A DNA stretch of 42,032 bases, taken from a virus (lineage: Duplodnaviria > Caudoviricetes). Below the pieces are notes generated by a model. The model had not been told where the DNA came from. It made no database searches and worked only from the letters and a program-made list of their open reading frames with translations. The position numbers and the translations under genes are program-made. Each line of letters starts with the position of its first letter. The first letter of the stretch is position 1. Positions 3,286 through 42,032 of the stretch are shown here, piece after piece. The stretch spans positions 1 to 42,032 of IMG/VR virus record IMGVR_UViG_3300038318_000193; one strand, written 5' to 3'.

Positions 3286-4227
3286 ATGAAGAATAATATT
3301 TTAGAACACGAAAAATTAGTTACCGAAAGAATTAATAAATCTTTTGGAGTAGAATCTAATAGTATTAATAAAGCTATAGATTCAAGTTTAGAATCTAGCG
3401 ATGATTCTCTAGATGAATTAAAAAAGGCTCATAACATAGGAGACGAAAAAGTATATCAAGGAATAACCTATTATGTTTCTGGTTTTAATTCTAAACATAT
3501 ACCTTTGTGGAGGAAAAAGAAGGGACAAACATCTGGTTCTTTAAATTCTAATATTAAAAAGAAAGAAGAAGTTAAGGAAACTAAAGAGGAAAAAGATGAC
3601 ATTAAGGATAATTCTAAAGAAAACGATGAAGAGAAAAAAGATGAAAAGAAGTTCTCGGCTTTTAAAAAGGAATATGGAGCTAAAGAAAGTTCTTTAGGAG
3701 ATAAAACGGTTTTATCATTCCCTTCTTCAGAATCTTTTAATAGAGCTAGAGAAGATTTTACTAAAAATAATTATTATGGCAAAGATATTTTAACTTTTAA
3801 TTCAATGGATAATGAAATAGTTTTTAGAGAGAAAATAAAGAAGGATATAAAAAAGAAAGTGTCTGAAGTACAAAAAGAAATGGACGCTTTATGGAATAAA
3901 GAAGATAGTAAAGGATATTTAGAAGGATATAAGAAATTTGGAAATATAGACGATTTTCATTATGACGAAAATACAAAAAAGTTATATTTATATGCAACGA
4001 ATAAAGACTATAGTTCTTTTGGAACTCCTGATGAAATAACTAATATAACTAAGAAAGATTTCGATGATTATGATAAAACATCAGGATGGTGTAATATAAA
4101 TTATCGCGGAAAAAGAGAACCCTTTTGCACAAATGAACACGGAGCTATATCTATTTATAAGATGTTAAAAGAAAAAGGAGTCGATGTTGATAAAAATAAA
4201 ATTAAATTAATAACGCATTTTGATTAA
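3286..4227 (+). CDS. Putative head-packaged protein of unknown function
   Basis: Leader MKNNILEHEKLVTERINKSF, INKA and LKKA motifs, then the shared 31-aa tag, a charged linker and an unrecognised domain. Confidence 0.6.
   Translation: MKNNILEHEKLVTERINKSFGVESNSINKAIDSSLESSDDSLDELKKAHNIGDEKVYQGITYYVSGFNSKHIPLWRKKKGQTSGSLNSNIKKKEEVKETKEEKDDIKDNSKENDEEKKDEKKFSAFKKEYGAKESSLGDKTVLSFPSSESFNRAREDFTKNNYYGKDILTFNSMDNEIVFREKIKKDIKKKVSEVQKEMDALWNKEDSKGYLEGYKKFGNIDDFHYDENTKKLYLYATNKDYSSFGTPDEITNITKKDFDDYDKTSGWCNINYRGKREPFCTNEHGAISIYKMLKEKGVDVDKNKIKLITHFD
3422..3512 (+). repeat. Copy 2 of the 91-bp coding repeat
   Basis: Near-identical to 1099-1189. Confidence 0.95.
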
Positions 4228-4236
4228 ATTTTTGTT

Positions 4237-4809
4237 ATGAGAAATGACATTTTAGAACATAGAATCCTTGTAGAAAACAATATTCTAAAAGGATTCAAAA
4301 CAGATTTAATTCAAGCAAAGAAGGAAACGGATACCAATCCTTCGGAAGGTACTAAGACGGCTGGAAATTATAAAAAGGGACATATTAAATTTGGCGGTTA
4401 TGAAATGGTTATAGAAAATCCTAAAGGAAGTATCAGGAGTGGTAAGGACAGTGATGGTAATAAGTGGAGTATTAAGATGAATAATACCTATGGATATTTT
4501 CTTAAGACTTTAGGCAGAGATAAAGATCATATAGACGTTTTCATAAATGATAAAAAAGACTTAGATAAGTTTAATGGAGATATCTATATAGTAGATCAAG
4601 TTGATAAGGATGGTAATTTCGATGAACATAAGATAATGTATGGTTTTGATAATAAAGCAGATGCAAAGAAGGCTTATTTATCAAATTACAGTAAGGGATG
4701 GAAGATGGGAAAAATTAATAGTGCTAGTAAGGATGTATTTGACAGATGGATGAAGAGTAGTAAGAGGAAAATTAAACCATTTAGTAATTATATAGATAAT
4801 ATGAAATAG
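4237..4809 (+). CDS. Inorganic pyrophosphatase-like (InPase, polyvalent-protein type) protein
   Basis: GNYKKGH...IENPKGSIRSG...YGY..T.G.D.DHIDVF...VDQ...FDEHKIMYGF pattern. Confidence 0.8.
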   Translation: MRNDILEHRILVENNILKGFKTDLIQAKKETDTNPSEGTKTAGNYKKGHIKFGGYEMVIENPKGSIRSGKDSDGNKWSIKMNNTYGYFLKTLGRDKDHIDVFINDKKDLDKFNGDIYIVDQVDKDGNFDEHKIMYGFDNKADAKKAYLSNYSKGWKMGKINSASKDVFDRWMKSSKRKIKPFSNYIDNMK

Positions 4810-4838
4810 CATAGTTTTATTATAAAAATTAGTTTATT

Positions 4839-5807
4839 ATGGATTTAATGAATGGTTATATTCAGCATCCTCCATTTTTTATAGAAATAGAGCCTACTGA
4901 AGGTTGTAATTTAGGTTGTTCTTTTTGTGGTTTAAGAGGAATAAGAAAAAATGGAACAAAACCTTGGAAATTTCTTTCATTAGAGAATGCTAAGACAATA
5001 GCACAGAAAATAGCAGATGAAAATTGGACGTGTCCGATAACATTTTGTGGACACGGTGAACCAACATTAAATAAAAATCTCATAGAGATAATGAAGATTT
5101 TTAGAAATAAATTGCCTAAAAATAGATTCAATATAATAACCAATGGCGCTGGATTTAGGAATGGAAATTTTGAGATAAATGACTTTTTAGATAAAGAAGA
5201 ATCTATAGGACTTAATGATTTAATTTTCGATGTTTATAGTGATAATGGAGATTGGACGGTTATATCAGATATAAAGAAAAAGATAAATATAAAGATAATA
5301 GGACAGGACGATGAAGGTTTTACTTATCGTCAAAAAGAGCTTAGAATAGCATTATATCCTATGGATATAAGGGGAGATAAGGCAATTTTAAGATCTTTAT
5401 CTAATCATTGTGGAGCTGCTTCTCCATTAGATTATAGACGAAAAGACATTACGTGTGTTAAACCCTTTAGAGAATTTTTTATTAGATGGGATGGAAATGT
5501 TGCTTTATGCTGTGATGATTTCAGAGGACAATATTTTATTGAAAATGTCTTAAACAAAATAACTTTAAAAGAAATATGGAATCATGAGAGATTTCAAGCA
5601 GCAAGAATAATGCTTTTTAACAAAAGTCGTACAATTTCTCCTTGCCTAGGATGCAGTTGTCCTCCTATCAGAGCAGGATTAATTCCAGATCCAAGCGGAA
5701 AAGATAAGGATAAGATGCCTAAAATAACAAAAGATGTTATAAGGATATTCAAATCTGCTTATAATCCTAAAGGATTGACTACCATAGTAAAAAGAGATTG
5801 GGAATAA
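4839..5807 (+). CDS. Radical SAM enzyme with SPASM/twitch domain
   Basis: CNLGCSFC (CxxxCxxC), GHGEP, ITNG; C-terminal CVKPF...IRWDGNVALCCDD...CLGC. Confidence 0.92.
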   Translation: MDLMNGYIQHPPFFIEIEPTEGCNLGCSFCGLRGIRKNGTKPWKFLSLENAKTIAQKIADENWTCPITFCGHGEPTLNKNLIEIMKIFRNKLPKNRFNIITNGAGFRNGNFEINDFLDKEESIGLNDLIFDVYSDNGDWTVISDIKKKINIKIIGQDDEGFTYRQKELRIALYPMDIRGDKAILRSLSNHCGAASPLDYRRKDITCVKPFREFFIRWDGNVALCCDDFRGQYFIENVLNKITLKEIWNHERFQAARIMLFNKSRTISPCLGCSCPPIRAGLIPDPSGKDKDKMPKITKDVIRIFKSAYNPKGLTTIVKRDWE

Positions 5808-5832
5808 AGTTAAAATCGTAAAATTATTAGTA

Positions 5833-6513
5833 ATGTCTAAAAAAGTATTAATTATTCAACCACATTCAGATGACGCTCTTTTTGATTGTGCGCACATTTT
5901 ATTTTCTCCTGAATATGATGTTAATATATTGACTGTAGAAAATGATGAAAGAAGGATTAAGGAAGATGAAAAATTATATTCATTCCTTAATATTCCACTT
6001 CAACATTTAAATGTTGAATTTAAAGATGATAGCTATTATGGTTATAAAAAATTATATAAAGAAGTTAATATAGAGAATTCTTATAAATATCTTATAGATT
6101 ATTTTGGCAAACAAACGGTTAACGAGATAACAGAATCTTTAAGAGCTTATTTAGAAGATTATTTTAAAAAAAATAAGCTTGAAGAATATTATGTTTTAGT
6201 TCCTTGGGGTATTGGCCATCCTTTTCATCTTTTTGTTAGAGATATTGTTAGCAATTGTATTTCCAGTCTTTATTATTATAGAGATTTTACAGAGTCTTAC
6301 AAGAAGAGAGCACAATCTCAAGTCGAAAAACAATTAAAAGAGTATGAATTAATTAGTTCAACTCCTGTAGAATCATTTTGTGAAATAAAATGGAAATTGG
6401 CTTCAAAATTTTATAGAAGTCAATCAGGGTTTTTATTTTATGAACAAAATTATATAAAAAAGAATCTTCCTGAAGAAATATATCTTAAGAAAGATGATAT
6501 ATTGCCGTTTTAA
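5833..6513 (+). CDS. PIG-L/LmbE-family N-deacetylase
   Basis: IIQPHSDD metal-binding motif, R..ED, and GIGHPFH (variant of HxDH). Confidence 0.8.
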   Translation: MSKKVLIIQPHSDDALFDCAHILFSPEYDVNILTVENDERRIKEDEKLYSFLNIPLQHLNVEFKDDSYYGYKKLYKEVNIENSYKYLIDYFGKQTVNEITESLRAYLEDYFKKNKLEEYYVLVPWGIGHPFHLFVRDIVSNCISSLYYYRDFTESYKKRAQSQVEKQLKEYELISSTPVESFCEIKWKLASKFYRSQSGFLFYEQNYIKKNLPEEIYLKKDDILPF

Positions 6514-6515
6514 TT

Positions 6516-7952
6516 ATGAAAATACTATTTGCAGATTTTAAGATACAAAAATATGGCGGGATAGTAGAATATATGTCTTCTATGCTTAAAGCCTTTAAAG
6601 AGTTGGGAAATGAAGTAGATGTCGTACAAATGAATCCTTCGTCTGTTAGTCAAAAGTTTTATGATAAAAGGATTAAGGAATTAGAATCTGGAGATTATAA
6701 TAAAAGAATTAACTTTAATTCTCAATCAGGAGGTTATGAAAAAGACGAAGCTACGGGATATTGGCGCAATAATTATTATGGCTTTTTTCTTCCTCCTAGC
6801 AATCGTATAGGGGTATATGAAGATGACTCTTTAGAACATTGGAGAAATATAGCTAATAAATTCGATATAATATTATGGAATTTTATGCCTACTAAAAGTT
6901 CAATATGGACGAAGAGAGGTATTCAGTTTGATTTTTGGTGGAAATTCTTTGATTTACCAAATAATATAAAACAGGTATTCATAGTTCATGACGCTTATTT
7001 CAATGTTAGGGCAAGTAATATATCTGCATTAAAGGATAAGATACATTTTTTAGCATGTGCTCATCTTGCAGCATATCATTGTTGTAATGAAATAGGAATA
7101 CCAAGAGCCTTACTTTTGAATCCAAGATATATTTCGGATAATGCTAGGATGCCAATACGTATGATTAAAAATAGAAACCAAGATTTCTTCGCAGCTCATA
7201 TGTTTAAGACAATGAAGCATATGGAAGAATTAATAGCCGCAATTCCTTATTTGAATAAAGAATATTCAATTGAAATCGCAGGAACAGGAATGGAATATAA
7301 TTATATGACATCTTCTTCTAAGATTAAAAAAGAATATATTTGTAATAAAAAAAGAGATCCTGATTTACCTAATGATTTAGACCAAAAGATATCCTTATGG
7401 AATAGAGCGATTAATTATAATATGGAGTACGCTGGACAAATGTCTGGACACGCTGTAAGAGAAAAACTGAAGAATACAAAATTTGCTATAGACCCATCTT
7501 GGTCAAGACATTATAGTAAATATTGCAGAACGCATATAAATGGATTTATAATTGAGGCTATTTTAGAAGGTGCGTATCCTGTTTTGAGAGATTATAGAGG
7601 GTTAACTCCTGAATCGAAGGGAAATTTATATGATCCACTATTTGAGAACATTAGAGCCATTATTATACCATGGGATTCTACTCCTAGACAATTTGCAGAT
7701 AAGCTAAAAGATGCTTTTAATATGTCTTCTGCTAAATTTTTTAAAGATACAAAACATAATTTTGAAATAGTCAGGGAACTTTTTAATGCAAAAAAGAATG
7801 CTCTCGATATAATTAAATTATGTAAGTTAAATAAAAAGGATATTACTAAAGAATTAGAAGTAGGAAAGGATTCTGATAATGTAATTAGAATAACGAAGGA
7901 AATAATGGAAGGATTTTATAAAATTAATCTTCCTATTAATTGGAAAACTTAA
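6516..7952 (+). CDS. GT-B fold glycosyltransferase
   Basis: N-terminal MKILF...YGGIVEY, IEIAGTG, FAIDPS and IIEAILEGAYPV (GT4-like donor-binding region). Confidence 0.75.
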   Translation: MKILFADFKIQKYGGIVEYMSSMLKAFKELGNEVDVVQMNPSSVSQKFYDKRIKELESGDYNKRINFNSQSGGYEKDEATGYWRNNYYGFFLPPSNRIGVYEDDSLEHWRNIANKFDIILWNFMPTKSSIWTKRGIQFDFWWKFFDLPNNIKQVFIVHDAYFNVRASNISALKDKIHFLACAHLAAYHCCNEIGIPRALLLNPRYISDNARMPIRMIKNRNQDFFAAHMFKTMKHMEELIAAIPYLNKEYSIEIAGTGMEYNYMTSSSKIKKEYICNKKRDPDLPNDLDQKISLWNRAINYNMEYAGQMSGHAVREKLKNTKFAIDPSWSRHYSKYCRTHINGFIIEAILEGAYPVLRDYRGLTPESKGNLYDPLFENIRAIIIPWDSTPRQFADKLKDAFNMSSAKFFKDTKHNFEIVRELFNAKKNALDIIKLCKLNKKDITKELEVGKDSDNVIRITKEIMEGFYKINLPINWKT

Positions 7953-7955
7953 TAT

Positions 7956-7975
7956 TCAATTATTATTTATATAAT
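7956..7975 (+). promoter_or_regulatory. Conserved intergenic motif TCARTTATTATT (candidate late promoter), copy 1
   Basis: TCAATTATTATTTATATAAT upstream of ATG 7994. Confidence 0.5.
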
Positions 7976-7993
7976 AAAAATTTTTATATAAAT

Positions 7994-10282
7994 ATGAAAG
8001 ATATTATACAAAAAGCGCATAATGTAGGAGACGAAAAAGTATACCAAGGAGTAACTTATTATGTTGCTTCTCTTAATTCTAGTGGTAAGCCTTTATGGAG
8101 AAAGAAGAAGGGTGAAAATAAGACAAAAGAGAATCATGATGTAACAGAGAATAAAAAATCTGAAGATGAAGGGTCTAAACAATTATCTGATTTTACCCCA
8201 GATGAAGTTGTAAAATATGCTAATGAAACTAAAACAGATAATCTAGTTAATGCAGTTAATGATAAGAATAACTCAAAAGATTTAAGACAATTAATTTTTA
8301 ATGTTCTTAAGAAGAGAGAAGATTATGATAAAGATAAGGTAAAATCAGAGGATTTACCTAATGGATATATAAAGGCTCCTGAATCAAAGATTAAATATTC
8401 TAATGGTCCAGAAGTTAAAATTTCAGTTCCTGATTCTAGGTTTAAAAAAATAAATGGTCGTCCTGTTCGTGTATCTACATCTGAAGAAAGAAGAAAATAT
8501 TCTAAGATGTCAGATGACGATCTTATAAAATTTATTAATAATAATAAGGCTAATGCTTTAGATAGACATTTAGCCTTTCAGGAAGCGTCTAGTCGTGGAA
8601 TAAAGGAAGATAAGTTAGATTTTAATGGTACTTTAAAGGATCTTTGGGATAGAGAGAAACAGAAACAAGATGCTCTTAAATATGCAAATGAAATTAATAA
8701 TCCAGAGGAAGCTGAAGATTATGATATCGATCTTAAGGGATTCGATATGGATTCTTTTATGGATAAATTTAAGGGCGGTGATGTAGGTTGGCTAGACAAG
8801 AGGAATCCTATTGTTCAAAAATCATTTAATTTTGATACTTTGGTTGGAAGACAGCAATATGATGCTGTAAAGGATTTTCAACAAAGACAATTAGCGGGAT
8901 ATCTTACTCCTACTAATAAGATTGGTGAATTAAATCAACAATACGAAGATTTTGTGAATAAGGATACAACTCCTTTATTTATTTCATCTGGAGGAGCAGG
9001 AGCTGGTAAATCATATGGTTTATGGGCTGTTTTAAATGATAGCGATATTCCTAAATTAGAAGAAGGAGATGATCCTTCTGAAGGCAATGATTATGGCTGG
9101 GTTCAATGTGACGATCCTGATGATGAGGAAGATTTTAGGAGAATGTTATCTAAGTACAATGGTACTTATACAGATGATAATGGTGATGATCATGGTCATA
9201 TTTTAGTATTTGATGATGCAGACAAGATTTTAACGACTCGCTCTGCAGCAATGGATAAAACTCTTAAAAAAATTTGTGATAATAATGAAAAGAGTAGAAC
9301 TTTTGTTAATCCTGATACAGGGAATACAGAGGTTTGGAAGGGAAGAATAATAGTTCTTACAAATAAAGATGTTGATAACATTGCAGAAAAGAACGAAGAT
9401 AAAAAAGCTGTTTTATCTCGTGGAATTGTAAATAATATTAATTTTACGAGAAATGAAACAATAGAGATATTAGCTAATAGATATAAGACTATGGGACTGT
9501 CTTCTTATCAAAAGGCTTTTAATAAAGATTTTCCTGATAAGAAAGATCAACAAAAAATTAGAAAGATGGCTTATGACTTTATGAAAGATAATGTTAATGA
9601 AGCTGATCCTGCTAAATTTACTCCAAGAAGTTTTATTCAAGTTATGCAAGCTATTGGACCATCTATTAAGAATGGTGGAAAAACAAAAATGATACACGGT
9701 ACAGTTCAGATAGGAACAAATTTACCATGGCAAGTTAAGGCAATGAATATTATAAAATCTATTAATTTTAATGAAATGGAAGATATTATAGAAAAGGCAA
9801 TTACTGCTGAAGATATGGTCAAGACAAAAGAAGACCTAGAGAAAAGAAAGAAAGAAATGAAAAAGAAAAATCCTAAACTTTATTCTAAACTTTATGGAGA
9901 AGAAGCTATTGATTCTTTTATTTCGGGAGATTCCGAAGATAAAAAAAGTTCTAAAGATTCTAAAAAAAATAATAAACTCTTGAAAAAGGCACAAGATTAT
10001 CTTTTTGGCGATAATATAGAAAAAGCGGAATTTTCTGAAAAGGAGAGAAAGAGTTTGTCTAAAAAGAAAGAAGCGCTTCCTGATGGATCCTTCCCTATTC
10101 GTAATATTTCAGATTTACAAAATGCTATTAAATCTATCGGAAGAGCAAAAGATCCTGAAAGAGCTAAAAGATGGATTAAAAAAAGAGCAAAAGAGTTAAA
10201 GAGTGAAAAGATTTTGCCAGAGACTTGGAAAGCTGAAAATATAGATCTAGAAAAAGCTGAGAATTATTTATTCGGAAAATAA
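7994..10282 (+). CDS. Multidomain putative head-packaged protein with an AAA+ ATPase and a DUF6582-like C-terminal domain
   Basis: Likely start is ATG 7994 (MKDIIQKA-HNVG..). Walker A GGAGAGKS, Walker B LVFDDAD, sensor IIVLTN, Arg finger AVLSR; ALPDGSFPIRNISDLQNAI motif near the C-terminus. Confidence 0.8.
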   Translation: MKDIIQKAHNVGDEKVYQGVTYYVASLNSSGKPLWRKKKGENKTKENHDVTENKKSEDEGSKQLSDFTPDEVVKYANETKTDNLVNAVNDKNNSKDLRQLIFNVLKKREDYDKDKVKSEDLPNGYIKAPESKIKYSNGPEVKISVPDSRFKKINGRPVRVSTSEERRKYSKMSDDDLIKFINNNKANALDRHLAFQEASSRGIKEDKLDFNGTLKDLWDREKQKQDALKYANEINNPEEAEDYDIDLKGFDMDSFMDKFKGGDVGWLDKRNPIVQKSFNFDTLVGRQQYDAVKDFQQRQLAGYLTPTNKIGELNQQYEDFVNKDTTPLFISSGGAGAGKSYGLWAVLNDSDIPKLEEGDDPSEGNDYGWVQCDDPDDEEDFRRMLSKYNGTYTDDNGDDHGHILVFDDADKILTTRSAAMDKTLKKICDNNEKSRTFVNPDTGNTEVWKGRIIVLTNKDVDNIAEKNEDKKAVLSRGIVNNINFTRNETIEILANRYKTMGLSSYQKAFNKDFPDKKDQQKIRKMAYDFMKDNVNEADPAKFTPRSFIQVMQAIGPSIKNGGKTKMIHGTVQIGTNLPWQVKAMNIIKSINFNEMEDIIEKAITAEDMVKTKEDLEKRKKEMKKKNPKLYSKLYGEEAIDSFISGDSEDKKSSKDSKKNNKLLKKAQDYLFGDNIEKAEFSEKERKSLSKKKEALPDGSFPIRNISDLQNAIKSIGRAKDPERAKRWIKKRAKELKSEKILPETWKAENIDLEKAENYLFGK
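8011..8100 (+). repeat. Diverged copy 3 of the coding repeat (KAHNVGDEKVYQGVTYYVASLNSSGKPLWR)
   Basis: Same peptide with substitutions; the ggagacgaaaaagtata core is conserved. Confidence 0.9.
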
Positions 10283-10698
10283 TGGCAGATTTTAGTAAGG
10301 CCTTTTCTATCATTTTAAAGAATGAAGGGGGATATGTTAACGATCCTAAAGATTCGGGAGGAGAAACGTATAGAGGTATTTCTAGACGTTGGTTCCCTAA
10401 TTGGAAAGGATGGAATATAATAGATATTTACAAGAAAGATAAAAAACTCAATAATAAGAATCTTAGTGAAAATAAAGAACTTACAAATTATGTATCTTCT
10501 TTTTATAAAAAGGAATTTTGGGATAAAATATGGGGAGATAAGATAAGTAACCAAAAAGTAGCTAATTTACTTTTAGATTCCTCAGTTAATATTGGAATAT
10601 CTAATGCTGTAAAAATGTCTCAAAAGAGTTTTTCTTTATCAGAAAATGGAGAGATGGATAATATGTTATTAAAGAAATTAAATAGTGTGGTAGGATGA
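10282..10698 (+). CDS. GH108 lysozyme (endolysin), catalytic domain only
   Basis: EGGYVNDPKDSGGETYRGI, FYKKEFWD, D.SVNIG; ends right after the GEMD..LL..LN helix. Confidence 0.9.
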   Translation: MADFSKAFSIILKNEGGYVNDPKDSGGETYRGISRRWFPNWKGWNIIDIYKKDKKLNNKNLSENKELTNYVSSFYKKEFWDKIWGDKISNQKVANLLLDSSVNIGISNAVKMSQKSFSLSENGEMDNMLLKKLNSVVG

Positions 10699-11066
10699 AA
10701 AGAATTACATTAATGTTATCTTTTATATTTTTTGCTTTATTTTTTGCAAATTGTGGAGGAAAGAATATTGTAAATGCAGATAATAAGGATACTTCTTTTT
10801 TAGAAAAGAAGGAAATTATTAATGATGATAAAACTATTTCATTAAGAGATACGATGAAACTAAAAGAAGATTCTATTCATCACTATATTAATTTAATTAA
10901 GATTTATAAAGATAGTATTAAATACTATAAAGATTCAATAGAATATAAGAATTATTCAAATTCTGTTAAAATTTTAAAAATAAAATATTATATAAAGATA
11001 ACTCAAAAACATCCTAAAAATAAAAAATATTTTTTTGGATGGGTTAATCGTACAATTTCTGAATAA
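10695..11066 (+). CDS. Lipoprotein in the lysis cassette with a GH108-type peptidoglycan-binding C-terminus
   Basis: Signal peptide II (MKR + hydrophobic core + FANC), coiled-coil, and C-terminal YYIKITQKHPKNKKYFFGWVNR. Confidence 0.7.
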   Translation: MKRITLMLSFIFFALFFANCGGKNIVNADNKDTSFLEKKEIINDDKTISLRDTMKLKEDSIHHYINLIKIYKDSIKYYKDSIEYKNYSNSVKILKIKYYIKITQKHPKNKKYFFGWVNRTISE

Positions 11067-15673: not shown

Positions 15674-16495
15674 ATGTCTAAAAGTATATTAACAACAAAC
15701 ATAATTACAGATATTACTTCACCAGATACCTCTATACCACAACCAAGATGGCAAGTAAGAGAATTTAATAGTCTTATTTATCAGAATGGATATGATTGTT
15801 ATATTCAAAAAGCTATGAGATGTCCTTGCGTTGATAAAGGGACAGGACAAGCATTGTCTACTTGTAAAAATTGTCTAGGAAGAGGATGGCTTTTTGTAGA
15901 AAAAAGAAAAACAAAAGTAATTGCTCAGGGAATGGGTGATTCTGTAAAGTATCAAGATTGGAGCAAAACAACACTAGGAACAGCTAGAATAACCGCTAGA
16001 GCTTCAGATAAATTGAATTTCATGGATAGAATAATATTTACTGGAACTCAGCTTGAAGACTATACTGAAATATTAAGACCTATACTATATAACAACGAAT
16101 TAATAGCTTATCCTATATATGAACCATTAACTATAAGTAATATATATTTATATGTTGGAGATTCTGTTAAATTAATGCCATTGTCTTCTGATAAATATAC
16201 TGTAGACGGAAATAGAATAGTTTTTGACCAATCTATTATAAATAATATTCCATCTAATGATATTAATCAAAATATGCCAGATATATCAATATCTATAAGA
16301 TATTCACATTATCCTGTTTATCATATAATACAAATAAATAGACAATTAATGACAGTAAGAAGTAATGATTATTGTTCTAATGGGGGAGATATGCGATCGA
16401 TGCCTATAAATGCAATTGCAAGAAAAGCTCATTATATATGGGATGCGCAAAGATTTGATAATGAATTATTAGATAATTCTATAAAGAAGGAGTAA
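15674..16495 (+). CDS. Head closure/neck protein with a Cys motif
   Basis: CPC...CKNCLGRG, as in the Twort-like neck gene at this position. Confidence 0.65.
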   Translation: MSKSILTTNIITDITSPDTSIPQPRWQVREFNSLIYQNGYDCYIQKAMRCPCVDKGTGQALSTCKNCLGRGWLFVEKRKTKVIAQGMGDSVKYQDWSKTTLGTARITARASDKLNFMDRIIFTGTQLEDYTEILRPILYNNELIAYPIYEPLTISNIYLYVGDSVKLMPLSSDKYTVDGNRIVFDQSIINNIPSNDINQNMPDISISIRYSHYPVYHIIQINRQLMTVRSNDYCSNGGDMRSMPINAIARKAHYIWDAQRFDNELLDNSIKKE

Positions 16496-16497
16496 TT

Positions 16498-16710
16498 ATG
16501 ACAATTAAAGATAAAAAACAAAGAAAGATTGCAAAGGTAATGAGAGAGTTTAAAGAGGGAACTCTTAAATCTTCTAGCGGAGAAATAGTCACTGATAAGA
16601 ATCAGGCTTTAGCGATAGCAATATCGGAAGCAGAGGATAAATTTGGAAAATCTTTAATGGATGATATTAATATTTCTTCTATAGATGAAGCAATAGAGAT
16701 ACTAGAATAA
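16498..16710 (+). CDS. DUF6496-like small protein
   Basis: KVMREFKEGTLKSSSG...QALAIAISEA motif. Confidence 0.7.
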   Translation: MTIKDKKQRKIAKVMREFKEGTLKSSSGEIVTDKNQALAIAISEAEDKFGKSLMDDINISSIDEAIEILE

Positions 16711-36711: not shown

Positions 36712-39700
36712 ATGGCACAGAAAGTATACGATAATGATATTGATAAATCTGTAGAATGGTCTGGTGATTCTACTACAGGAAACTTACCAGTCTCAGGGAG
36801 AGCTATTCAAAAATTCTTAAAAAATGGATTAGAAACTAGATTTGGTTCATTATATTATGATCAGAATAATAATAGATATGTAGCATTTGCAGATACTACT
36901 GACAGGGATTTATATATAAAGGATCCAGTTACTAATTTAGGACTAGTATTAGCAACATGGGATGCACCTGCTGCATATACTGTTACCTATCAATTATTGA
37001 CTGAAACTACTGTATACATCCTAAATGGCCAGACGGGAAATTATATAAGATATACTTTTGCTACAGTTAATAAGAATAATCAACCAATAGGTGAAGCAGT
37101 AAGTGTTACTTATAACTTTACAAATGGTAATACTAAAACTTCAGTTAAAAAGGAGTATGCCGCAGGAACTACTGTAGAATTTTTATTAGATAACTATATA
37201 AATATAGGTACTAATAGAATACAAGTAGTAATTACTGGTTTAACTACCTTAATAAGTACTTCATTTTTAATTACTTATAATGTAGTTCAACTTGACTTAG
37301 CCACATCGTATAATATGGCTACTGTCAATAAAACGAATATATTAGTAATACCATATACATTAACTGGTGCAGGAGCTAAAACAACAGAATTCTATATTGA
37401 TGGTCATAAGGTAACAGCCCTAGGTGAGGATACTGCTACAGCAACTTCAGTATCTAAATCTAGAACTATAGATTTATCTTCATTTAATCTTAAAGATGGT
37501 ATTCATAATCTCCAAATAAGATCTTATGTAATAAATAATTCTCAAACATTCTATAGTAATACTTTATATCGTAATTTCATTATTGATAAAAGTGCAAATC
37601 TTACTGGTAATTATGTTGGAGTAGGTACTGATTTACCATCAGGATCTTTAATAGCTACTGGTAATAATCTTGAAATAAGTGTTACTCAATTTGAGCAATT
37701 TTCAATTAGTTATTTTGGATATAGTTCTGGAGCTATTACTACTATTCCTATTACAGTTAAATTAGGTACTCTTACAATAGCTTCAATAAATACTACTAAT
37801 GATATTGTAAATACTTGGAATTATATTTCTCATAATTATGGTACCGATACTTTACATTTTATTACTAGTGATCAAGATTTACCAATTAACTTAGATATTG
37901 CACAATCGACTACTGGATTAACTGAAGTAACATCTGGATTAACAGTTAAGCTTAATGCTGTTGGTAGGTCTAATAATGATACTGATAAAAATTCTTGGAC
38001 TTATGGAAATTATTCCACTATTTTTAATAATTTTCAGTGGACCCCACAATCTGGATGGGATGGTACCTCATTAGTAATGTCTAATGGTTCTAATATTGAA
38101 GTTAATGTAAAACCATTTAATTCTGATATTAAGGCTACAGGAATGGCTATTGAAGTAGATTTCATGGCTACTAATGTAATTGATGATAATGCTATTATAT
38201 TTTCATGCGTAAATACTGATACTAATGTAGGATGTATAATTACTGGTCAGATGATAAGTATGACTTCTCCTGCAGGCACTACTTGTAAAATGATGTATGC
38301 TGCAGAGGAACGCAATCATGTTATATTTATGATTACTAAAACCTCTGAGACTTATCATAACCTAATGATGATATTCATCAATGGTATTATGTCAGCATCA
38401 GCAGTATATCAGAATACTGAATCATTTACTGGTCAGCAAACAGTAAAAGTAGGAAATGCTGCTGGTAATGCTGGTATTAAATTATATAATTTAAAAACAT
38501 TTACTTCTGATTTTTCAGATGATGATGCTGTTAATGAGTATATAATATCTAAAGAGGATTCATCTGAATTACTTGAACTGTACAATAAGAATAATATTTA
38601 TGATGAAAATGGAGAGGTCAGCATTGATAAAATATCTGCTATTTGTCCTGTAATGAAAGTTACTGGTGATCTAGATACCTTAATGGCTACTTCTGATAAG
38701 AATGTTAAGGTGCATGTTGATATAGATTATATCAATTTACAAGATCCCAAAAAATCCTTTACCACGAAAGGTACAGAGATGAAATTACAGGGTACATCAT
38801 CATTAGGTTATCCTCGTAAAAACTGGAAGATTAATCTTAAGACAGGTAGCTCCAAGATGTGGGATTCTGATGATAATCCCGTTGATGGACTTGAGTATAC
38901 TTTATACGATGATGATCCAGCTGAGTCGAAATGGACTTTTAAAGCTGATTATATGGATTCCTCCATGTCTCGTAACTCATCTATTGCAAGATTATGGAAT
39001 GATGCAATGTATAATGCTCAAATAGGAGGTGGATATAGTTTACGTACTGACCCACAAGTTTACCAAGCTGCAAATCCCACAGTATATCCTTATAAAGTAA
39101 GAACCACTCCTAACAGTCTGCCTATCGTAATGTTTTATAGAGAGACTGAGAGTAATGATTGGATATTCTTAGGACAATATAATTTTCTTAATGATAAAGG
39201 AAATGATACTCTATACGGATTTAAAGGTGTAACTGGATTCGATAATTCCAATGCTATATGCTTTGAAGGTCTAGAGAATACTACTACTTTATCAAAATTT
39301 AGGGATGTATCTACTTTTGATGCATCGTGGAATAATACCTGGTCATTCAGATATCCTGACTATGATGATGCTAGTGGATTAAATCCTAGTAAGCTCACTG
39401 ATAGAGCATCTAAAATAGCTAGTCTTAAAGATTTTGTTACCTGGATCAATTCTACAATTCATGAAGATGGTACAGTATATGGTCCTACTATTACAATTAA
39501 TGCTGAATATAAAGCAAATGATGCAGATTATAAAGCTCTTATAGCAGGTAATGGTGGTAGTAATATTTTTACTGGAAATGCCACTAATAGGCAATTAAAA
39601 TTTAAGTGGGAAAAGTGGGATCATTTTGATGTATATAAATTAGCGGCTTACTATGTTTATTTAATGAGATATGGTGCTGTAGATCAAGTAGTCAAAAATA

Positions 39701-42032
39701 CTTTCTATACTACTTTTGGTACTGAGGGAGTAGGTACTCATTTTAAATGGTTCTTCATTAACTATGATAATGATACTATTGTAGATAAGATTAATGACGG
39801 TCACTTAATTTATGATTACTCATTTAATAGATCGACTCCTTCTAATACTACTCAAGATGGTGAGGATTATCACTATATGGGGCATGATTCAGTATTATGG
39901 AATAACCTAGAAGCTGATAGTGAATTCATGAGTATTGTTGAGGATGTAGATAATGCTATTTATTCTGGAGGAATGACTTACAAGTCAGTTATCAATATGT
40001 TTGATACCAAACAAAGAAATATCTGGCCTGAGAGAATATTTAACTCGAATCAGATATATAAGTACCTTGAACCTTACTACAAAGATGGGACGAATAATCT
40101 GTTTATGCTTAATGGTTCAATGAAATCACATGATCATTGGTGGTTAAGTCATCGTTTTGATTTATATGATGCTATATTTGTATCTGGTAATTATAAAGGT
40201 AAGAATATTGAATTTAAAGTAACATCAGGACAAAAGAGTTTTACTATAACATCAGGAAACAGTGGAATATATTTTGGTTATGGTATCAATAATGATGCTA
40301 TAGAGACTGGTATAAAGATACCATTTGGAAGCTCACATACATTTAACTTGCCTAGAGCATTGGCAATAGGTGATCCAGTCAGAATATACTCTGCTCAGAA
40401 TATTAAAGGAGTAAATCTGAGTGCATATATGTCTACACTCACTGATTTATCACTAGGTGGTGCTTATAACTCTGAGTCTGGGGACACTCAATTATCTGAG
40501 ATTATATTAAGTGATGGTACAAACTCCAATGCTATGTTAGAGAGTATATCAGGATTAGATAGTCTTAGTAAATTGACTAAGCTGGATATTAGAAATTATA
40601 CTAAACTTACTAGTATCTCATTAGTAAATAATAAATTACTTACTACATTACTTGCATCAGGTAGTGGAATAGGATCAGTTGATTTACCAACTGGATCACC
40701 TATTACTACTTTATCATTACCCTCAATGAAGATTCTGCTATTATCTGATTTACCGAATCTTACAATGTCAGGATTAACATTAGATGACAAGGGAGTTACT
40801 CTTAATGATATTGAGATAAATAATTGTGCTGGATTAGGTGGAAGTAGTATGCAGAGTTTTATTACTTCTTGGATGACTAATAAAACTACAGCAAGTGCAA
40901 GTTGTATATTGAAGTTAGATAATATTAATTGGACTTCATTTGATCCTGCTATACTAATTAGCATGGGAAGTATAGGTACTCTTTCACTAAAAGGTAAAAT
41001 TGTACTATCATCAATTACTCAATCTCAATATAATCAGATTACAAATCTATTTGGAGTTAATGTTTGGAATCTAAATAATAGTTTATCCATTAATGCTGCA
41101 TCTGGAGCATTTATAGGTGGTCCATCATCAGTAAATTGGAAATCAACTGGTAGATTTAGTGCAACAATATTTCCACTATCATCCTCTCAGGTAATCACTT
41201 GGTCAGTTTTAAACTCAAGTGGTGCATCAGTAACTGGTATCTCTATTGATTCTACTGGATTATTAACTACTACTGCTGATTTATCGAAGGATGTACAAAT
41301 GGTAGTTAAAGCAGTTTCTGGGTCAACTAATGTTAGTATGAATGTGATATGTTATGGACCTGTATATCCTACTTCAGATAGTTATCTAACTGCTCCAAAG
41401 TCCATTCATACTACTGGTGACGTTAGTATACCTTTAACTATAGTTCCAGCAAATGCGAATGGTACTTATACAGTTGATTGGATTATTACTGGAACTCCTG
41501 TTACTGATGGTTATGTTACTATTAAGTCACAAAATGACTCAGGAATAATACTAAATGTAAATACTGTTTATCAGGACACTAACATTCATGAGATAGTTAT
41601 AACTGCTACAATTACTCGTACTGACGGAAATATTTATGCGATAAAAACATCTGCTGTTATAACTACGCAGGATTTTCTGTTTACAAGTAATGACAATGCA
41701 GAGGTAGTTGCTAAAATGTATGCTGCCAAGAAATGTGCATCATCTTATGGTATGACCAAAGCAGAATGCGAATCAGTTACTGATTTAGGAAGCGGATCAT
41801 CTGCAATGTTTTACAATGATACAAATCTGAAATCCTTTGACGAATTACAGTATTTTACAGGACTTACTAGTTTAGGAGATTCCTGTTTTATGAATTGTAC
41901 TTCATTGACTAACATAACCTTACCTAGTAGTATAACTAGTTTAGGACAGAATTGTTTTATGAGTTGTACTTCATTGACTAGCATAACATTACCTAATAGT
42001 ATAACTCGTTTAGGAGATTCCTGTTTTACCAA
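36712..42032 (+). CDS. Giant (>1770 aa, 3'-truncated) virion protein: beta-rich N-terminus, LamG-like region, CotH-like kinase, LRR, Ig-like region, BspA-type LRR
   Basis: ATG 36712 (MAQKVYDNDIDK); the segments I translated stay in one frame to the window end. Motifs: LQGTSSLGYPRKNWKI, KADYMDSS, GQYNFLNDK, AVDQVVKN, NYDNDT; ends in FDELQYFTGLTSLGDSCFMNCTSLTNITLPSS repeats. Confidence 0.85.
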   Translation, partial: MAQKVYDNDIDKSVEWSGDSTTGNLPVSGRAIQKFLKNGLETRFGSLYYDQNNNRYVAFADTTDRDLYIKDPVTNLGLVLATWDAPAAYTVTYQLLTETTVYILNGQTGNYIRYTFATVNKNNQPIGEAVSVTYNFTNGNTKTSVKKEYAAGTTVEFLLDNYINIGTNRIQVVITGLTTLISTSFLITYNVVQLDLATSYNMATVNKTNILVIPYTLTGAGAKTTEFYIDGHKVTALGEDTATATSVSKSRTIDLSSFNLKDGIHNLQIRSYVINNSQTFYSNTLYRNFIIDKSANLTGNYVGVGTDLPSGSLIATGNNLEISVTQFEQFSISYFGYSSGAITTIPITVKLGTLTIASINTTNDIVNTWNYISHNYGTDTLHFITSDQDLPINLDIAQSTTGLTEVTSGLTVKLNAVGRSNNDTDKNSWTYGNYSTIFNNFQWTPQSGWDGTSLVMSNGSNIEVNVKPFNSDIKATGMAIEVDFMATNVIDDNAIIFSCVNTDTNVGCIITGQMISMTSPAGTTCKMMYAAEERNHVIFMITKTSETYHNLMMIFINGIMSASAVYQNTESFTGQQTVKVGNAAGNAGIKLYNLKTFTSDFSDDDAVNEYIISKEDSSELLELYNKNNIYDENGEVSIDKISAICPVMKVTGDLDTLMATSDKNVKVHVDIDYINLQDPKKSFTTKGTEMKLQGTSSLGYPRKNWKINLKTGSSKMWDSDDNPVDGLEYTLYDDDPAESKWTFKADYMDSSMSRNSSIARLWNDAMYNAQIGGGYSLRTDPQVYQAANPTVYPYKVRTTPNSLPIVMFYRETESNDWIFLGQYNFLNDKGNDTLYGFKGVTGFDNSNAICFEGLENTTTLSKFRDVSTFDASWNNTWSFRYPDYDDASGLNPSKLTDRASKIASLKDFVTWINSTIHEDGTVYGPTITINAEYKANDADYKALIAGNGGSNIFTGNATNRQLKFKWEKWDHFDVYKLAAYYVYLMRYGAVDQVVKNTFYTTFGTEGVGTHFKWFFINYDNDTIVDKINDGHLIYDYSFNRSTPSNTTQDGEDYHYMGHDSVLWNNLEADSEFMSIVEDVDNAIYSGGMTYKSVINMFDTKQRNIWPERIFNSNQIYKYLEPYYKDGTNNLFMLNGSMKSHDHWWLSHRFDLYDAIFVSGNYKGKNIEFKVTSGQKSFTITSGNSGIYFGYGINNDAIETGIKIPFGSSHTFNLPRALAIGDPVRIYSAQNIKGVNLSAYMSTLTDLSLGGAYNSESGDTQLSEIILSDGTNSNAMLESISGLDSLSKLTKLDIRNYTKLTSISLVNNKLLTTLLASGSGIGSVDLPTGSPITTLSLPSMKILLLSDLPNLTMSGLTLDDKGVTLNDIEINNCAGLGGSSMQSFITSWMTNKTTASASCILKLDNINWTSFDPAILISMGSIGTLSLKGKIVLSSITQSQYNQITNLFGVNVWNLNNSLSINAASGAFIGGPSSVNWKSTGRFSATIFPLSSSQVITWSVLNSSGASVTGISIDSTGLLTTTADLSKDVQMVVKAVSGSTNVSMNVICYGPVYPTSDSYLTAPKSIHTTGDVSIPLTIVPANANGTYTVDWIITGTPVTDGYVTIKSQNDSGIILNVNTVYQDTNIHEIVITATITRTDGNIYAIKTSAVITTQDFLFTSNDNAEVVAKMYAAKKCASSYGMTKAECESVTDLGSGSSAMFYNDTNLKSFDELQYFTGLTSLGDSCFMNCTSLTNITLPSSITSLGQNCFMSCTSLTSITLPNSITRLGDSCFT
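41866..42032 (+). repeat. 69-bp tandem repeats encoding 23-aa BspA/LRR_5 units
   Basis: Units start at 41866, 41935 and 42004 (actagtttagga.../actcgtttagga...). Confidence 0.9.

Follow-up and report, generated by a model that had tools for sequence, protein, structure and literature searches.

How does a phage muramidase cut the cell wall when its gene stops before the fold of the enzyme is complete? The question is raised by two overlapping open reading frames (ORFs), ORF1 and ORF2, in a 42,032-base stretch of a virus record (IMGVR_UViG_3300038318_000193; the whole stretch is called the window here), estimated to be about 42% complete. ORF1 (10282..10698, plus strand) encodes a truncated GH108 muramidase of 138 residues that has no signal peptide and lacks the final two helices of the fold, as seen from a family match, an AlphaFold 2 model and an alignment to SagA. 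ORF2 (10695..11066, plus strand) encodes a predicted exported partner subunit of 123 residues, recognised by its sequence, a profile match and a model. The stop codon of ORF1 and the start codon of ORF2 overlap in the sequence ATGA (10695..10698, plus strand), which also terminates the catalytic gene in 73 of 82 unique pairs with a downstream partner, and the two genes are likely translationally coupled. An earlier note on this DNA had described a GH108 enzyme that ends early, at 138 residues, with an overlapping next gene, and its coordinates and sequences were correct. The present analysis confirms that ORF1 and ORF2 encode two complementary parts of one GH108 muramidase fold and that the split is real and conserved.

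The two genes tile the fold of a full-length enzyme. The GH108 family (PF05838) matches ORF1 residues 9-105 with an E-value of 2e-22 and 79.8 bits against a cut-off of 21.2. The GH108 residues are present in ORF1: E15, D24 and T29 in the catalytic loop (10324..10368, plus strand), the same triad as in SagA, plus N103, which lies in the motif Pho-Asn/Gln. A Pfam profile search gave no match of ORF1 to PG_binding_3 (PF09374). It is ORF2 that carries the missing C-terminal motif, as the earlier note had claimed; positions 45-75 of the 76 in this profile match ORF2 residues 90-120 with 22.1 bits and an E-value of 1.7e-4, below the 24.6-bit cut-off, and relatives of ORF2 exceed the cut-off at 27.5-31.2 bits. 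In the endolysin profile phrog_315, ORF1 covers positions 333-447 and ORF2, weakly (E 0.019), positions 451-485. A full-length relative of 184 residues (L122) is divided in the same way. Its residues 1-139 correspond to ORF1 1-134 at 42%, and its residues 152-181 correspond to ORF2 93-122 at 60%, with no overlap with the part matched by ORF1. The earlier note had placed the DG..G..T loop ahead of PG_binding_3. In L122, residues 115-179 match positions 3-75 of the PG_binding_3 profile, and the domain starts at the equivalent of ORF1 residue 110. The loop is thus the first part of PG_binding_3, and the gene is therefore cut inside this domain and not between domains. The loop in ORF1 is also degenerate, with N122 and D126 in place of the D and G of full-length enzymes.

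The structural models agree with this division. The ORF1 model has a predicted local distance difference test (pLDDT) value of 89, and its chain begins with the catalytic helix. Residues 1-138 of the model align to SagA 3-127 of 174 (Z 10.4, root-mean-square deviation 3.1, 121 residues aligned), and the model also aligns to NMB1012 4-122 of 163 and to 2NR7 1-131 of 194. A canonical GH108-PG_binding_3 endolysin has a complete PG_binding_3 domain in one chain, whereas ORF1 stops at SagA residue 127. The ORF2 model consists of a signal helix (2-20), a flexible linker, a helix at 50-81 and tail helices at 84-105 and 107-122. The two tail helices (10944..11060, plus strand) are the final two GH108/PG_binding_3 helices according to the profile, the model and the predicted interface with ORF1. 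The stalk, a coiled coil in the earlier note, is predicted to be a single long helix. A Foldseek search with the ORF2 model returned nothing at E<=0.001, a result that is uninformative for three helices, and a weak match of the partner profile to TtsA in the PDB (E 0.17) was used for register only. The distance matrices of enzyme and tail correlate (0.49, against at most 0.14 in 500 permutations), and since shared ancestry explains this correlation it is not counted as co-evolution.

What does ORF2 contribute to the enzyme? In SagA two elements border the substrate site: the catalytic loop, with the triad E17/D26/T31, and the start of the last helix, where W155 hydrogen-bonds the acetyl group of N-acetylmuramic acid (MurNAc) and F151 packs hydrophobically on MurNAc (PMC8334348). 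In TtsA, N166 and F169 cross-link to peptidoglycan and N166D impairs function (PMC6996933). Alignment places N109, Y112 and W116 of ORF2 at N166, F169 and W173 of TtsA, the 17-residue offset being fixed by Q164, N166 and F169. The groove residues of SagA and TtsA thus map to ORF2, and one wall of the substrate groove is therefore supplied by the partner, which goes beyond an accessory grip. To examine conservation, 193 sequences were clustered at about 72%, which left 62 split and 31 full-length representatives. The E/D/T triad is invariant in all 62 split and all 31 full-length representatives. The tail residues Y, G, W and R are invariant in the 62 split representatives, G-W-R having formed part of the motif used to gather the training tails.

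The split enzymes differ from the full-length ones in the pocket for diaminopimelic acid (DAP). TtsA requires D118, the equivalent of D111 in the DAP pocket of SagA (PMC6996933). In ORF1 the loop concerned (N122..L129; 10645..10668, plus strand; D111, G115 and T118 of SagA by alignment register) has N122 at D111 and D126 at G115, and the canonical DAP pocket is absent. The D is kept in 4 of 62 split representatives and the G in 2 of 62, against 31 of 31 for both in full-length enzymes; the T129 column, unreliable because of trimming gaps, was left unused. The pocket is lost in 58 of the 62 split representatives, unlike in full-length GH108 enzymes, and this may be a single loss, most split rows being kin. 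One enzyme of 122 residues (L096, 3001-3369) ends before the DAP-pocket loop, and an upstream partner is still present.

Is the split peculiar to this virus? Loci were collected from six viral scans, one genome scan, one metagenome scan, the window and two GenBank regions, and the survey covers relatives within reach of the seed patterns. It comprises 293 loci, many of them redundant: 248 with a short enzyme and a partner, 36 with a full-length enzyme alone, 8 with a partner only, at contig ends, and 1 with neither. A short enzyme alone was found at none of these loci, and neither was a full-length enzyme with a partner. The earlier note had proposed a survey of the gene pair, and the outcome is that the split is conserved, with a tail gene for 248 of 248 short enzymes. 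Tail scores show a gap between 10 and 20 bits. The least biased set comes from the catalytic-query scan (the best 80 of 541 confirmed, drawn from 23 of the collection's 64 parts), in which 26 enzymes are full-length and 54 are short, and a tail frame lies beside all 54 short ones. In the first scan the same pair is found at 9 of 10 loci, the tenth beginning inside the partner at a contig end; because of these nine, the pair is not a product of chance or assembly error. The partner is downstream in 82 of 161 unique pairs and upstream in 79, up to about 1.3 kb from the enzyme and often with other genes in between. Downstream partners and full-length tails served to train the tail profile, and 24 crAss-like cases lie outside this training set; 23 of them have an intact upstream partner and one has a frameshifted partner. 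Two partner-gene copies were seen on one 86.8-kb contig (L227 and L228), perhaps through assembly duplication.

At E<=1e-10 the partner profile finds 545 clusters; at E<=1e-3 it finds 1081, and the weaker of these may include full-length enzymes. The best 120 homologues of ORF1 are all 136-140 residues long. Partner proteins range from about 74 to 222 residues, their stalk length being free, and the best 150 partner representatives have 64-146 residues. No fused long form of the partner was found among 7993 candidates of 232-2000 residues, which is weak evidence. A tblastn search with ORF2 gave no match in cultured and annotated phages; the split pair is present in the cultured Chryseobacterium phage MA9V-2 as gp247/gp248, where the partner has 222 residues. 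The ratio of non-synonymous to synonymous polymorphism (pN/pS) is 0.13-0.29 for both genes, with small counts for the window and non-independent crAss pairs. In the signal peptide the window differs from one relative (L001) by 0 synonymous and 2 non-synonymous changes, which gives no ratio. A quick tree puts 59 of 62 split enzymes together on a single branch with a support of 89. A second tree, made from 28 of the 62 split rows and 28 full-length rows after four were dropped (three long-branched and one 400-residue fusion), places 26 of 28 split enzymes on one branch with a support of 97, and a single clade for all 28 is not rejected (approximately unbiased test, p 0.675). The data are compatible with one origin of the split that was followed by spread between unrelated phages.

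Modelling the pair, another step that the earlier note had proposed, gave a predicted complex that passed its controls. The input was ORF1 with ORF2 residues 60-123, in three runs and with three controls, and the alignments were our own and lie outside the calibration of the tool. The complex scored 0.63 (runs 0.66, 0.47 and 0.63) and the best control 0.01; the score mark is reached by 116 of 157 solved pairs and by 2 of 215 mismatched pairs. The runs agree in at least 93% of contacts, and the pLDDT of the partner is at least 60. In the predicted interface, ORF2 80-98 lies on ORF1 90-117 and 132-138, and ORF2 residues 116, 119 and 123 and ORF1 residue 14 also take part. Halves of split genes tend to pass by likeness to solved structures, so the score shows compatibility and not binding.

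The export signal is found on the partner. Of 147 partners, 146 begin with a hydrophobic N-terminus; the same holds for 3 of 161 short enzymes and for 1 of 36 full-length enzymes. ORF2 has the sequence features of a lipoprotein cleaved by signal peptidase II, namely a basic n-region, a hydrophobic h-region and a conserved Cys, as judged by a crude rule. Its predicted signal peptide ends at C20 (10695..10754, plus strand) and includes the hydrophobic helix 2-20 of the model. The lipoprotein signal FFANC was called intact in the earlier note. C20 is invariant in 11 of 11 close relatives, but the residue before the Cys in the lipobox F-A-N-C is unusual. Among the 147 partners, 87 have a lipobox-like Cys, 10 resemble cleaved Sec substrates with Gln, 6 are ambiguous and 43 are hydrophobic without a called Cys, some of which have a Cys missed by the crude rule. 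A Gln was taken to mark cleaved Sec substrates. What is conserved across the partner family is an export or membrane signal, and a lipid anchor is not general; the membrane anchoring proposed in the earlier note stands only to this extent. Lipoproteins may also carry the surface-export motif LES after the Cys (PMC5080379). An LES-like motif occurs in none of 117 Cys-type partners, including ORF2, which has none after C20.

A second line of evidence comes from the stalk. The O-glycosylation motif of Bacteroidota, D-(S/T)-(A/I/L/V/M/T), is used exclusively outside the cytoplasm, for the most part in the periplasm (PMC8729774). The stalk helix of ORF2 (residues 50-81; 10842..10940, plus strand) has four of these motifs, at D52, D59, D73 and D80, which share a single heptad position. 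The motif is absent from ORF1 and occurs at chance level in eight other proteins of the window. There are 415 motifs in 146 stalks against about 39 in shuffles, 478 against 48 in 149 library representatives that were partly selected by profile, and 122 against 11.3 (maximum 21) in 44 stalks reached via the catalytic query. No enrichment in stalks is seen for the related motifs D-(S/T)-other, E-(S/T)-hydrophobic and N-(S/T)-hydrophobic. The short enzymes as a set have a 2.5-fold motif excess and the full-length ones less, which is attributed to one conserved helix column. The signal peptides and the roughly tenfold enrichment of glycosylation motifs support the view that the partner works in the periplasm.

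The same system as ORF1 and ORF2 is carried by p-crAssphage, a common phage of the gut, as gp80 and gp82, with the tail gene upstream and gp81 between. GenBank BK010471.1 labels both parts without linking them: gp80 is a 'putative lysozyme' and gp82 a 'putative membrane protein, contains peptidoglycan-binding domain'. In cr3_1 the GenBank label of the partner is 'secretion activator protein-like'. Lysis in Crassvirales appears to use spanins and lysins (PMC10136315, a review). Two membrane proteins, gp79 and gp78 (L148, 4458-5067), follow the enzyme directly, a position conserved in crAss-like loci; their frames overlap by our own ORF calls, they also bear the O-glycosylation motif and they are spanin candidates without a family match. 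The complete 97.9-kb relative G002, for which 109 of 111 called ORFs were scanned, has the pair as its only GH108 and PG_binding_3 match.

How would such an enzyme work? It is probable that the pair forms a two-part endolysin completed in the periplasm, in which the signal-less catalytic part works only once docked on the exported part. This two-component reading, which the earlier note had already put forward, is supported by the co-occurrence of the genes, the tiling of the fold, the conserved groove residues on the partner and the complex prediction; the lipid anchoring in the original proposal is not general, and the built-in timing control that it also suggested is a hypothesis. ORF2 is predicted to be exported by Sec, lipidated at C20 and kept on the periplasmic side, with its stalk O-glycosylated by the host. 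ORF1 would build up in the cytoplasm and cross the inner membrane through a holin at lysis. With the catalytic triad on ORF1 and the last two helices on ORF2, helix 84-98 of ORF2 is predicted to pack into a groove formed by ORF1 helices 91-104, 106-116 and 127-135, and N109, Y112 and W116 would complete the substrate groove. The tether may replace the DAP pocket, which most split enzymes have lost, and may confine wall cutting to the infected cell and to the location of the partner. A stricter form of this model is more tentative and slightly less likely than not. In this form the pair would be a split-enzyme AND gate: part of the substrate groove would be placed in the periplasm beforehand, as a tether that the host glycosylates, and the cytoplasmic part would stay inert until docking.

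Several observations weigh against completion in the periplasm. ORF1 alone is modelled confidently and may fold and keep some activity. One of the three complex runs scored 0.47, the alignments lie outside the calibration, and the predictor may have passed the pair because it had learned full-length GH108 structures. On a crAss contig (L101/L202) the enzyme is intact but the partner gene beside it (about 2440-2790 of L101) carries a frameshift, either an assembly error or a real mutant. No holin was recognised in the window, which is 42% complete. In G002 a holin-like gene, unconfirmed and matching an unnamed PHROG only, lies about 9 kb from the pair. Besides the pair, G002 has further wall hydrolase candidates, namely a tail M23 peptidase and a small SLT protein that bears a signal. 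The SLT-domain protein (16205-16654 of the G002 locus L300) has 150 residues and a lipoprotein-like signal and lies in a region of small genes.

Could ORF1 be partly active alone, with ORF2 enhancing or targeting it as PlyCB does PlyCA, and perhaps bringing the cutting close to the spanins? ORF1 retains the triad and N103 and is modelled confidently by itself, and a heterodimer of this kind is compatible with the complex prediction. However, the partner does not amount to a binding domain of its own; on it lie the residues that contact the scissile sugar in SagA, and the 293 redundant loci include no short enzyme without a tail gene. This explanation is therefore considered unlikely. Less likely still is a genuine heterodimer that opens local holes in the manner of TtsA, to release phage slowly or remodel the envelope in a carrier state, and that does not serve lysis at the end of the cycle. 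TtsA is a GH108 enzyme used for secretion, the pair lies among head genes and apart from holin-like genes in this phage group, and p-crAssphage is able to persist with neither plaques nor major lysis (PMC10983915). Other phages have a holin gene next to the pair (Phage_holin_4_1 in L044, E 7e-10; a weak holin match in L042), and of the 88 features of p-crAssphage only gp80 bears the name of a wall hydrolase, which speaks for end-of-cycle lysis. The earlier note had offered as its alternative a spanin-like protein that grips the wall, and a spanin-like or Lpp-like ORF2 acting without binding ORF1 would account for the lipoprotein signal, the long helix and the place of the tail gene in lysis cassettes of some phages. 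This is now disfavoured and seems very improbable. The tail gene is never beside a full-length enzyme (0 of 36), nor without a short enzyme where flanking DNA is present; some partners look soluble, stalk length is free, the usual spanin position in crAss phages is taken by gp79 and gp78, and the predicted complex passed. ORF2 has no spanin family match in the family libraries searched and no C-terminal transmembrane segment. Spanins of Bacteroidota are poorly covered by these libraries. A broken gene, intron, programmed frameshift, read-through or assembly error with a one-chain or dead product, which the ATGA overlap and the tail in another frame might suggest, can be dismissed, since the tail gene lies upstream of the enzyme in crAss-like phages and in 79 of the 161 unique pairs, both genes are under purifying selection and the nearest homologues are uniform in length.

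A two-part endolysin completed in the periplasm can be compared with several known systems. Full-length GH108 plus PG_binding_3 enzymes (TtsA 6V40, SagA 7DNP, NMB1012 2IKB, P. gingivalis 2NR7 and the phrog_315 endolysins) share the fold, the E/D/T triad, the Pho-Asn motif and the Y..N/Q..F/Y..GW..R tail. They are one chain, whereas the split system has two genes, with the export signal and stalk on the tail. PlyC (PlyCA plus eight PlyCB) likewise consists of two separately encoded polypeptides, but it combines whole catalytic domains with a complete binding ring, and its parts assemble upon co-expression in E. coli (PMC13560338). In the split system one helical bundle is cut, and its halves are predicted in different compartments; the partner is two helices of the catalytic fold and not a self-contained oligomeric binding subunit. 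Two-polypeptide endolysins made from internal start sites are also heteromeric (PMC9430671, PMC7098653). Unlike the split pair, they have one gene, extra copies of a binding domain and Gram-positive hosts, and no export signal. Membrane-linked control of a T4-lysozyme-like enzyme is found in signal-anchor-release (SAR) endolysins and in Mu gp22 with the releasin gp25, Mu needing a second protein (PMC9239132). With SAR enzymes it is the catalytic chain that is exported and tethered, and gp25 is cytoplasmic and outside the fold, unlike ORF1 and ORF2; ORF1 has no transmembrane SAR segment. None of the nearest systems compared cuts one fold across the membrane.

No description of the pair was found in the titles and beginnings of abstracts that literature searches listed, subscription papers and supplements aside, and the main text of the 2021 crAssphage annotation paper, supplements aside, has no mention of lysozyme, endolysin or peptidoglycan. 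The split form is a real and widespread variant of the GH108 endolysin, found in many Bacteroidota phages, and is apparently undescribed. It would be a natural split enzyme with its halves separated by a membrane, and it offers a proposed function for an unnamed family of several hundred sequence clusters. For p-crAssphage, which maintains itself in culture without forming plaques and for which no lytic switch is known (PMC10983915), it also provides a lysis mechanism that can be tested. If the AND gate is true, it would be a further form of lysis control beside cytoplasmic and SAR endolysins, present in unrelated Bacteroidota phages, and it could belong to tight lysis control in p-crAssphage. 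One prediction is that these split 'lysozymes' of 136-144 residues, if mined as enzybiotics, will be weak or dead without the partner.

In the window, ORF1 and ORF2 lie directly upstream of the genes for the head maturation protease and the major head protein. The nearest cultured capsid relatives are the Bacteroides phages DAC16-23 and SJC03 (43%), contigs with partner homologues are binned as Dysgonomonadaceae, Bacteroides and once Treponema, and we infer that the host of the virus belongs to Bacteroidota. A tRNA scan found none, and a promoter and terminator scan gave signals at chance level only. In three relatives a gene of about 800 codons with kinase-like motifs, seen by eye, lies two genes upstream of the enzyme (L002 678-3167, L003 835-3201, L006 2-2542); a profile search with the G002 copy gave no family match. 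The gene at 912-2069 encodes a 385-residue protein with a zincin-like metallopeptidase region (Peptidase_M90 E 1e-7; ATLF E 2.5e-6). A short motif, KAHN-IGDEKVYQG, recurs in its N-terminal part and in the proteins at 3286-4227 and 7940-10282, the latter two resembling internal head proteins. Positions 4237-7952 hold a gene cluster, possibly a modification pathway, for an inorganic pyrophosphatase, a radical SAM/SPASM protein, a weakly matched PIG-L deacetylase-like protein and a weakly matched glycosyltransferase-like protein. Radical SAM and glycosyltransferase genes are found at the same place in G002. An open-ended protein of 1773 residues at 36712-42030, with leucine-rich-repeat-like units at its end, is probably a tail or adhesin protein.

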